A stretch of DNA of 46,078 bases from a virus (Duplodnaviria > Heunggongvirae > Uroviricota > Caudoviricetes), in IMG/VR virus record IMGVR_UViG_2675903417_000003; one strand, given 5' to 3'. This document shows, in pieces, positions 15,895-17,459 of this stretch. A program made the position numbers and the translations under genes. Every line of letters begins with the position of its first letter. Position 1 is the first letter of the stretch. The notes under the pieces are model-generated. The model saw only the letters and a list, made by a program, of their open reading frames with translations. It did not search any database and was not told where the DNA came from.

Positions 15895-16110
15895 ATGAAA
15901 TCAATGGATAAGTTAACAACAGGTGTTGCCTATGGCACATCGGCGGGTAATGCTGGTTTCTGGGCATTGCAGTTACTCGATAAAGTAACTCCGTCACAGT
16001 GGGCTGCAATCGGTGTGCTGGGTAGCCTGGTTTTTGGCCTGCTGACGTATCTGACAAATCTTTATTTCAAGATTAAAGAAGACAGGCGTAAGGCTGCGAG
16101 AGGAGAGTAA
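15895..16110 (+). CDS. essQ: Class II pinholin (phage 21 S-like) with dual-start motif
   Basis: 71 aa [71 protein letters not shown]; Met1 and Met4 both present; GGGGTGAGG Shine-Dalgarno. Confidence 0.85.
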
Positions 16111-16114
16111 TCCA

Positions 16115-16426
16115 ATGACTCAAGACTATGAACTGGTTGTGAAAGGAGTCCGTAATTTTGAGAATAAAGTTACGGTAACTGTAGCCTTACAGGACAAAGA
16201 ACGCTTTGACGGTGAAATTTTTGACCTGGATGTCGCCATGGACCGTGTTGAAGGAGCTGCGCTGGAGTTTTATGAGGCAGCAGCCAGAAGGAGCGTCCGG
16301 CAAGTCTTCCTGGAAGTAGCAGAAAAATTGTCAGAAAAAGTTGAGTCTTATCTGCAGCATCAATACTCCTTTAAGATTGAAAATCCTGCCAATAAGCACG
16401 AGCGTCCTCATCATAAATATCTATGA
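16115..16426 (+). CDS. ydfR: YdfR-like protein between holin and endolysin
   Basis: 103-aa ORF; stop overlaps the endolysin start (ATGA). Confidence 0.65.
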   Translation: MTQDYELVVKGVRNFENKVTVTVALQDKERFDGEIFDLDVAMDRVEGAALEFYEAAARRSVRQVFLEVAEKLSEKVESYLQHQYSFKIENPANKHERPHHKYL

Positions 16427-16956
16427 ACACAAAAATCAGATACGGCCTGTCGGCTGCCGTTCTGGCGCTGATTGGTGCTGGCGCATCTGCTCCTCAGATA
16501 CTTGACCAGTTTCTGGACGAAAAAGAAGGTAACCACACAATGGCATACCGCGATGGTTCTGGCATATGGACCATCTGTCGGGGTGCCACAGTGGTGGATG
16601 GAAAAACCGTTTTTCCCAATATGAAACTGTCGAAGGAAAAATGCGACCAGGTCAACGCCATTGAGCGTGATAAGGCGCTGGCATGGGTGGAGCGCAATAT
16701 TAAAGTACCACTGACCGAACCACAAAAAGCGGGTATCGCGTCATTTTGTCCCTATAACATTGGCCCCGGTAAGTGTTTCCCGTCGACGTTTTATAAGCGG
16801 CTGAATGCTGGTGATCGTAAAGGTGCATGCGAAGCGATTCGCTGGTGGATTAAGGATGGCGGACGCGATTGCCGCATTCGTTCAAATAACTGTTACGGTC
16901 AGGTTATTCGTCGTGACCAGGAGAGCGCATTAACCTGCTGGGGGATAGAACAGTGA
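16423..16956 (+). CDS. rrrQ: SAR endolysin (lysozyme-like, phage 21 R-type)
   Basis: 177 aa; Gly/Ala-rich N-terminal signal-anchor-release segment [21 protein letters not shown]; E...D...T catalytic pattern [22 protein letters not shown]. Confidence 0.85.
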
Positions 16957-17459
16957 ATCAGATATTCATGGTGATTTTTCTCGTGTTGTCAGGATTTATC
17001 GTCGGAAATGTCTGGAGCGACCGAGGATGGCAAAAAAAATGGGCGGAACGTGATGTTGCCGCATTATCACAAGAGGTAAATGCTCAATTTGCTGCTCGAA
17101 TAATTGAACAGGGGCGAACTATAGCCCGTGATGAGGCTGTTAAAGATGCGCAACAGAAATCTGCTGAAATTTCTGCCAGGGCTGCTTATCTGTCTGATAG
17201 TGTTAACCAGTTGCGTGCCGAAGCAAAAAAATATGCCATACGCCTTGACGCAGCGAAGCATACCGCAGATCTTGCCGCTGCCGTCAGAGGCAAAACAACC
17301 AAAACCGCCGAAGGAATGCTCACCAACATGCTCGGAGATATTGCAGCAGAAGCTCAGCTTTATGCTGAAATTGCTGAAATTGCTGACGAACGCTACATCG
17401 CAGGAGTGACTTGTCAACAGATCTATGAATCTTTAAGAGATAAAAAGCATCAAATGTAG
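16953..17459 (+). CDS. rzpQ: Rz i-spanin
   Basis: 168 aa; GTG start overlapping the endolysin stop; N-terminal TM then coiled-coil-like sequence. Confidence 0.8.
17146..17409 (+). CDS. rzoQ: Rz1 o-spanin lipoprotein, embedded in Rz in the +1 frame
   Basis: Lipobox LTSC followed by a proline-rich mature part; GAGG upstream of ATG 17146. Confidence 0.7.

Follow-up and report, generated by a model that had tools for sequence, protein, structure and literature searches.

The Qin-type lysis cassette of a lambdoid prophage and the DUF1327 gene ydfR between its holin and endolysin, a probable accessory late gene

Results

In this work, we analyzed positions 15895-17459 of a 46,078-nucleotide (nt) stretch of phage DNA, IMG/VR record IMGVR_UViG_2675903417_000003 (the whole stretch is called the window below), with particular attention to ydfR, a gene of the DUF1327 family that separates a holin gene from an endolysin gene. 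The list of open reading frames (ORFs) and the raw sequence place five genes here, all in the same orientation on the + strand: essQ (15895-16110; 71 amino acids, aa), encoding an S21-type class II holin (pinholin); ydfR (16115-16426; 103 aa), encoding a DUF1327 protein; rrrQ (16423-16956; 177 aa), encoding a signal-anchor-release (SAR) endolysin of the T4-lysozyme-like muramidase type; rzpQ (16953-17459), encoding an Rz-like i-spanin; and rzoQ (17146-17409; 87 aa), encoding an Rz1-like o-spanin lipoprotein in the +1 frame within rzpQ. Judged by the family matches, which are strong, chance ORFs are excluded. A first-pass annotation of the window had described a holin with a dual start, an endolysin with a SAR segment, Rz1 embedded in Rz in the +1 frame and a 103-aa ydfR-like ORF coupled to the endolysin by an ATGA overlap, and all four features are found at the positions given below.

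Sequence comparison makes it almost certain that the region is the lysis cluster essQ-ydfR-rrrQ-rzpQ/rzoQ of Qin-type lambdoid prophages, which is already known and annotated. The cryptic Qin prophage of Escherichia coli K-12 MG1655 carries essQ (b1556), ydfR (b1555), rrrQ (b1554), rzpQ (b1553) and rzoQ (b4689) in the same order and with the same overlaps, and its flanks are shared with the window (ynfU, cspB and cspF upstream, cspI downstream). The DNA of both is 99.74% identical over 5 kb; EssQ, YdfR (b1555/P76160) and RrrQ are 100% identical as proteins, and the cassettes themselves differ only at residue 35 of RzpQ (A35V) and by a tandem duplication of 9 nt. Two phage genome records, PhiR42_1 and HannyBb, contain the same cassette, and positions 10001-35000 of the window are collinear with PhiR42_1 (98.4% identity, 100% coverage). 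The whole window is probably a Qin-like lambdoid prophage of full length: like PhiR42_1, it has a lambda-like region for head and tail that is full-length and that is missing from K-12 Qin, a truncated remnant of this type. A megablast search with the 1.9-kb region gave matches in 4600 of 5426 complete E. coli genomes, 2082 of them covering at least 80%, and the genes matched are annotated as essD/essQ, ydfR, rrrQ and rzpQ.

EssQ matches the Pfam family PF04971 "Bacteriophage P21 holin S" over residues 5-67 of 71 (E 4.4e-34) as well as phrog_9876 and phrog_20 (both "holin"), and 67 of its 71 residues are identical to those of EssD from the prophage DLP12. Its N-terminus reads M1-K2-S3-M4, with ATG codons at 15895 and 15904, which predicts a dual start with an antiholin-type form of 71 aa from Met1 and a holin form of 68 aa from Met4. 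The region of the first transmembrane domain (TMD), residues 8-28, has G, A, S or T at 12 of 21 positions; the second TMD contains the glycine-zipper-like pattern G40xxxS44xxxG48, the best 19-residue hydropathy value is 1.72 at residue 36, and the cytoplasmic C-terminal tail is basic and charged. EssQ combines the family membership, the dual start and the two TMDs (the first weakly hydrophobic and SAR-like) of an S21-type pinholin.

RrrQ belongs to PF00959 (E 1e-23) and phrog_7 "endolysin" (8.7e-61), shows the catalytic spacing E35-x8-D44-x5-T50 of the muramidase triad, and aligns from its N-terminus with two solved SAR endolysins, the phage 21 lysozyme R21 (3HDE, 2.1e-16) and RrrD of DLP12 (4ZPU). 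It represents a separate lineage of 177 aa, with only 30-33% identity to the R21/RrrD type. Residues 8-27 form a weakly hydrophobic segment (hydropathy 1.67) in which 11 of 20 residues are Gly, Ala or Ser, the composition expected of a SAR segment, and the sequence ASA followed by Pro24 argues against cleavage by signal peptidase, given the known specificity of this enzyme. No cysteine is found in residues 1-51, so that regulation of the R21 type is more likely and disulfide caging of the P1 Lyz type, which uses a cysteine in the SAR segment, is unlikely.

The GTG start of rzpQ overlaps the stop codon of rrrQ (GTGA), with an alternative ATG at 16968. RzpQ matches PF10721 (DUF2514; 1.4e-36) and phrog_312 "Rz-like spanin" (4.2e-54), and has the architecture of an i-spanin, an N-terminal TMD (aa 4-22, hydropathy 2.18) followed by a helical periplasmic domain. 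The rzoQ gene runs from its ATG at 17146 to its TGA at 17409 in frame 1, rzpQ being in frame 0, and is fully embedded, as expected for the o-spanin; RzoQ carries the lipobox L20-T21-S22-C23 and matches phrog_11621 "Rz-like spanin" (1.7e-5). A 9-nt unit, TGCTGAAAT, is present in two tandem copies at 17363-17380 (+ strand) within the overlap of both genes, as seen from the alignment, the motif positions and the protein comparison, and in a single copy in K-12, KL53 and PhiR42_1. The duplication is in frame for both genes: it inserts AEI into RzpQ, which together with A35V is its only difference from the K-12 protein, and LKL into RzoQ, otherwise identical to K-12 RzoQ. In several E. coli strains (H13-H20), IS1, IS3, IS5 or ISVsa5 is inserted in rrrQ or rzpQ of the same cassette, which shows an ongoing decay of lysis genes in resident prophages.

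The first-pass annotation had proposed homology searches and structure prediction for the product of 16115-16426, and homology identifies it as a member of DUF1327 (PF07041; E 1.1e-53, profile positions 1-93 of 93). YdfR has no hydrophobic segment (maximum 19-residue Kyte-Doolittle value 0.67) and an acidic N-terminal domain (isoelectric point, pI, 4.6), and is predicted to be a small soluble cytoplasmic protein. Its AlphaFold2 model consists of three antiparallel strands (5-14, 18-27 and 34-43) followed by a long helix (50-83), with a predicted local distance difference test score of 67 overall and 67-90 per 10-residue block across the N-domain. The N-domain (aa 1-72) has 36 invariant positions in our family alignment A1 and is under purifying selection against homologues (ratio of nonsynonymous to synonymous substitution rates, dN/dS, 0.21-0.28). 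The C-terminal tails, on the other hand, differ and are mosaic, the proteins ranging from 76 to 287 aa, and the longer relatives (174-287 aa; P0023, P0121 and P0136) run on beyond the end of the Qin allele. As this comparison indicates, the functional unit of DUF1327 is the conserved N-terminal domain of about 72 aa. No credible Pfam domain was found in the C-terminal extensions of the longer members, a profile search of the sequences of the PDB with alignment A1 gave a best E value of only 0.22, and fold and profile searches with YdfR yielded nothing informative. A 3128-aa metagenomic repeat protein (P0135) matched YdfR through six repeats (summed E 2.7e-11), but hhalign gave a probability of only 4%, and the match probably reflects chance or a compositional effect of the repeats. 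A role in defence was likewise rejected, no match to PADLOC-DB being found for YdfR, P0140 or P0159.

The genes of the cassette are tightly packed. The ydfR gene starts 4 nt past the stop codon of essQ and ends in a TGA that overlaps the ATG of rrrQ (ctATGAac, 16423-16426). This arrangement leaves no room for signals of its own (4 nt upstream, ATGA downstream), and no promoter-like or terminator-like site was found on the + strand within the cassette; the reading of ydfR as a classic moron was rejected on these grounds. Upstream of the holin gene and after cspB there is a strong terminator-like hairpin (15423-15442; 8-bp stem with 5 G-C pairs, T run), which late transcription must pass, presumably by means of Q antitermination. 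The 20 nt upstream of rrrQ contain no Shine-Dalgarno-like sequence and no GG at all. The ribosome-binding site GGGGAGAG, used here by ydfR, is used by the endolysin gene in phage Min27; ydfR thus occupies the holin-proximal site and leaves rrrQ without a Shine-Dalgarno-like sequence. In the Qin subtype, rrrQ is probably translated by termination-reinitiation coupling at the ATGA overlap. This coupling is absent in the phages mEp460, H-19B and Stx2 phage 86, and therefore it cannot be the function of the DUF1327 family. Outside the cassette, two 5' leaders matching the Rfam cspA thermoregulator (14765-15157 and 17676-18061; 158.8 and 112.8 bits) are found in front of cspB and cspI and bracket the lysis genes; cspF (14413-14625) and ynfU (15505-15726) lie on the minus strand, and the cargo region of the late operon holds three cold-shock genes.

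DNA similar to ydfR is present in 3572 of the 5426 complete E. coli genomes, with a full-length copy in 1789 of them and up to 6 copies per genome. A tblastn search found DUF1327 in 100 of 50,697 phage records, including mEp460, H-19B, Stx2 phage 86, YYZ-2008 and many phages carrying the Shiga toxin (Stx) types Stx1a and Stx2c; an S21-type holin was found in 438 phage records, and endolysins at least 80% identical to RrrQ in 355, as against the 100 with DUF1327. We also compared 80 contigs from IMG/VR that encode a holin with 92-100% identity to EssQ, a sample that is biased to close relatives. At 49 of these 80 loci, a DUF1327 gene starts exactly 4 nt past the holin stop and is followed by an RrrQ-type endolysin gene 311-1760 nt from that stop; at 27, an R21/RrrD-type endolysin gene directly abuts the holin gene, and the remaining 4 have neither after the holin. 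Two loci (L048 and L049) combine holins 99% and 97% identical to EssQ with an R21-type endolysin directly after them, and K-12 itself carries both arrangements, without ydfR in DLP12 and with it in Qin.

The first-pass annotation had stated that holin and endolysin genes are normally adjacent in cassettes of this type. This is correct for phage 21-like cassettes, DLP12, SfI and Min27, but the arrangement with ydfR is itself very common, and the unusualness implied for the inserted gene does not survive the comparison, the cluster being the annotated Qin one. The possibility raised there that the gene is both ubiquitous and dispensable fared better: its ubiquity is evident from the genome, contig and phage record counts, and its dispensability is supported indirectly by Min27, in which genes of the same holin and endolysin types are adjacent, and by L048 and L049, where R21-type endolysin genes abut the holin genes.

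Taxonomically, DUF1327 is narrow. A search of 5.8 billion proteins yielded 267 clusters; when 1.84 billion representatives were searched in depth, 57 matches were returned, essentially all of Escherichia type apart from one exotic match (P0135, above), and among species-representative genomes the family was found only in Escherichia, Shigella and two contigs of metagenome-assembled genomes. These two contigs, labelled Veillonella parvula (L007) and Bacillota bacterium (L009), carry ydfR copies 99% and 84% identical to ours and are probably mis-binned Escherichia prophage contigs. More distant homologues of 76 aa, which have nothing but the N-domain (about 31% identity with YdfR, Pfam E about 1e-13), occur on metagenome contigs in lambdoid tail modules, where they sit between gpM/gpL and gpK and far from any holin gene (L014, 511-741; L015 and L016, 3001-3231; L017, 34-264; L018, 161-391). 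At four of these five loci (L015-L018), the DUF1327 gene adjoins a minus-strand ORF of 117-182 aa.

Discussion

The comparative data presented here indicate that ydfR is dispensable for the holin-endolysin pair, and they argue that it is probably an accessory late gene and not a part of the core lysis machinery, because both near-identical holins and endolysins of the RrrQ type are also found where ydfR is missing, and distant members of the family are found in tail modules. A search of the literature turned up nothing specific on DUF1327 in lysis cassettes and no experiment on lysis timing with and without ydfR. The only functional data on YdfR come from a single report (RNA Biology 2026, PMC13232886), in which a bacterial two-hybrid screen of a library with RNase G as bait (T18-Rng) yielded the K-12 protein, which was found to bind RNase E preferentially. 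In the same report, Strep-tagged YdfR pulled down Rne(1-598), the catalytic N-terminal half of RNase E; residues 1-72 of YdfR were enough for the interaction; abundant DNase-resistant nucleic acid (RNA) was present in the YdfR eluate; and overexpression of YdfR was not toxic and changed few transcripts (PMC13232886). The part of YdfR that interacts corresponds to the conserved N-domain, and the K-12 protein studied is identical to the one encoded in the window. From this one study we tentatively suggest, at somewhat under even confidence, that YdfR could be a soluble accessory factor of the late phase directed at RNase E and/or RNA.

Taken as a whole, the reading that the locus is a standard Qin cassette in which ydfR is accessory and its product is directed at RNase E or RNA appears slightly more probable than its contrary. 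Several observations weigh against it. The interaction with RNase E was reported in one study with overexpressed and tagged proteins, the transcriptome was hardly affected, and its authors could not exclude that the co-purified RNA came from a contaminant (PMC13232886). In addition, the DUF1327 gene lies exactly 4 nt after an S21-type holin gene in every Escherichia phage or prophage locus that we examined (49 of 49), a constant spacing that would be expected from mere linkage and equally from a function tied to the holin. The ATGA coupling to the endolysin gene is not conserved, given the 311 to 1760 nt that separate the holin stop from the endolysin gene and, as an example, the 55-nt gap between ydfR and the endolysin gene in mEp460.

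The constant position next to the holin gene, which is also seen in PhiR42_1, mEp460, H-19B, Stx2 phage 86 and HannyBb, might be taken to mean that YdfR is a cytoplasmic regulator of lysis timing that acts on the pinholin, maybe by binding EssQ at its charged C-terminal tail in the cytoplasm, just as the soluble RIII protein of T4 supports lysis inhibition. The acidic N-domain of YdfR facing a basic holin tail would suit such a contact, and the Keio deletion of ydfR is listed among envelope mutants positive with the substrate chlorophenol red-β-D-galactopyranoside (CPRG) (supplement of PMC3879167). Nevertheless, we regard this explanation as unlikely: near-identical holins do without ydfR (L048, L049 and DLP12), the distant family members of tail modules have no holin nearby, the dual start already gives the holin gene an antiholin of its own, and profile and fold searches revealed no similarity of YdfR to any known antiholin in sequence or fold. 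As for the CPRG phenotype, it is more simply understood as expression of the downstream SAR endolysin driven by the kanamycin cassette. The Keio deletion of ydfU is likewise CPRG-positive (supplement of PMC3879167), and in K-12 Qin (L102) ydfU sits directly upstream of the gene for the Q antiterminator, as ydfR does of that for the SAR endolysin, which makes a polar effect the simpler explanation. Both phenotypes are thus probably due to polar read-through from the cassette promoter that activates lysis genes and not to the loss of either gene function, and we have set the phenotype of the ydfR deletion aside as evidence for a lysis role.

A different possibility is that the ydfR frame matters mainly in cis: it would occupy the ribosome-binding site proximal to the holin and, through its ATGA end, set a low level of endolysin translation, with the protein being secondary. 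The use of the GGGGAGAG...ATG site by the endolysin of Min27, the lack of any GG in the 20 nt before rrrQ and the ATGA overlap itself are what one would expect in this case. They do not explain, however, why the N-domain is under purifying selection and is retained elsewhere at identities as low as about 30%, and the ydfR stop lies 55 to more than 1000 nt from the endolysin gene in mEp460, H-19B, Stx2 phage 86 and many IMG/VR loci, so that we consider a mainly cis-regulatory role very unlikely. Hardly more can be said for the view that ydfR is neutral in this prophage and without function there, being what truncation has left of a longer DUF1327 protein and owing its presence to linkage with the holin gene. 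The mosaic tail, the relatives that continue past the end of the Qin allele and the near absence of a phenotype upon overexpression (PMC13232886) are in line with it, but the purifying selection on the N-domain, the intact state of the gene in some 1800 complete genomes as well as in phages that have been sequenced, and the specific protein interaction reported (PMC13232886) all speak against it, and we judge it equally improbable.

Returning to ydfR as an accessory gene of a standard Qin cassette, a sequence of events can be proposed in which the lysis genes behave as their homologues in phage 21, whose lysis order is established. The cassette would be transcribed within the Q-antiterminated late operon. 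EssQ would then build up in the inner membrane, its 71-aa form serving as an intrinsic antiholin, until it triggers at a set time and forms small pinholes that would collapse the membrane potential. By analogy, the inactive, membrane-tethered RrrQ would be freed into the periplasm, refold and degrade the murein, after which the RzpQ/RzoQ spanin complex would remove the outer membrane. YdfR, whose gene would fill the slot directly after the holin stop where the endolysin starts in Min27-type cassettes, most likely has a job other than envelope disruption, and would act on RNase E and/or RNA in late gene expression.

It is tempting to speculate further, though we think this unlikely to be the case, that the YdfR family is an unrecognised class of late proteins of temperate phages that dock on host RNase E at its catalytic domain, either as inhibitors or as RNA adaptors. 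Such proteins might stabilise or process the long late transcript and thereby indirectly set the holin-to-endolysin ratio and the timing of lysis, while their variable tails might provide different RNA or partner specificities. As a genome feature, the cassette described here is nothing new, since it is the annotated Qin cluster and occurs in between one third and two thirds of the complete E. coli genomes. YdfR, on the other hand, is conserved, under selection and widely distributed among lambdoid phages, those with Stx included, and yet poorly characterised in K-12. The comparative data narrow the question about its role, as they point to the N-domain as the functional unit of a gene that is dispensable for the holin-endolysin pair and is also found outside lysis cassettes. 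If a phage late protein indeed targets the catalytic half of RNase E, this would add something modest but real to what is known of phage-host RNA biology, and in Stx phages a link between YdfR and RNase E could affect the timing of lysis and of toxin release.

Small phage proteins that contact and modulate host RNase E are described in other phages, namely gp0.7 of T7, Srd of T4 and Dip of phiKZ. No likeness of YdfR to these modulators turned up in the general sequence and fold searches, none of which was aimed at them. YdfR also differs from them in being encoded in the late operon of a temperate phage and in targeting the catalytic half of the enzyme (Rne 1-597/598).

Among other lysis cassettes, close parallels are found in DLP12 and phage 21, which share with the Qin cassette the S21 holin family, the dual start, a SAR endolysin with the residues E35, D44 and T50, and embedded spanins. 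In DLP12 and SfI, however, the holin gene overlaps that of a 165-aa endolysin with nothing in between, whereas here ydfR separates the two genes, and the spanins of the Qin cassette belong to the DUF2514 family while those of DLP12 and phage 21 belong to a different one. Min27 (Stx2a, 933W-like) shows yet another arrangement, S-R-ant-Rz, with ant between R and Rz and no ydfR. Its holin is of the S21 type and 80% identical to EssQ, its endolysin gene has the same length as rrrQ (534 nt, 177 aa), and this endolysin gene starts 4 nt past the holin stop, in the very slot that is held by ydfR in the Qin cassette.

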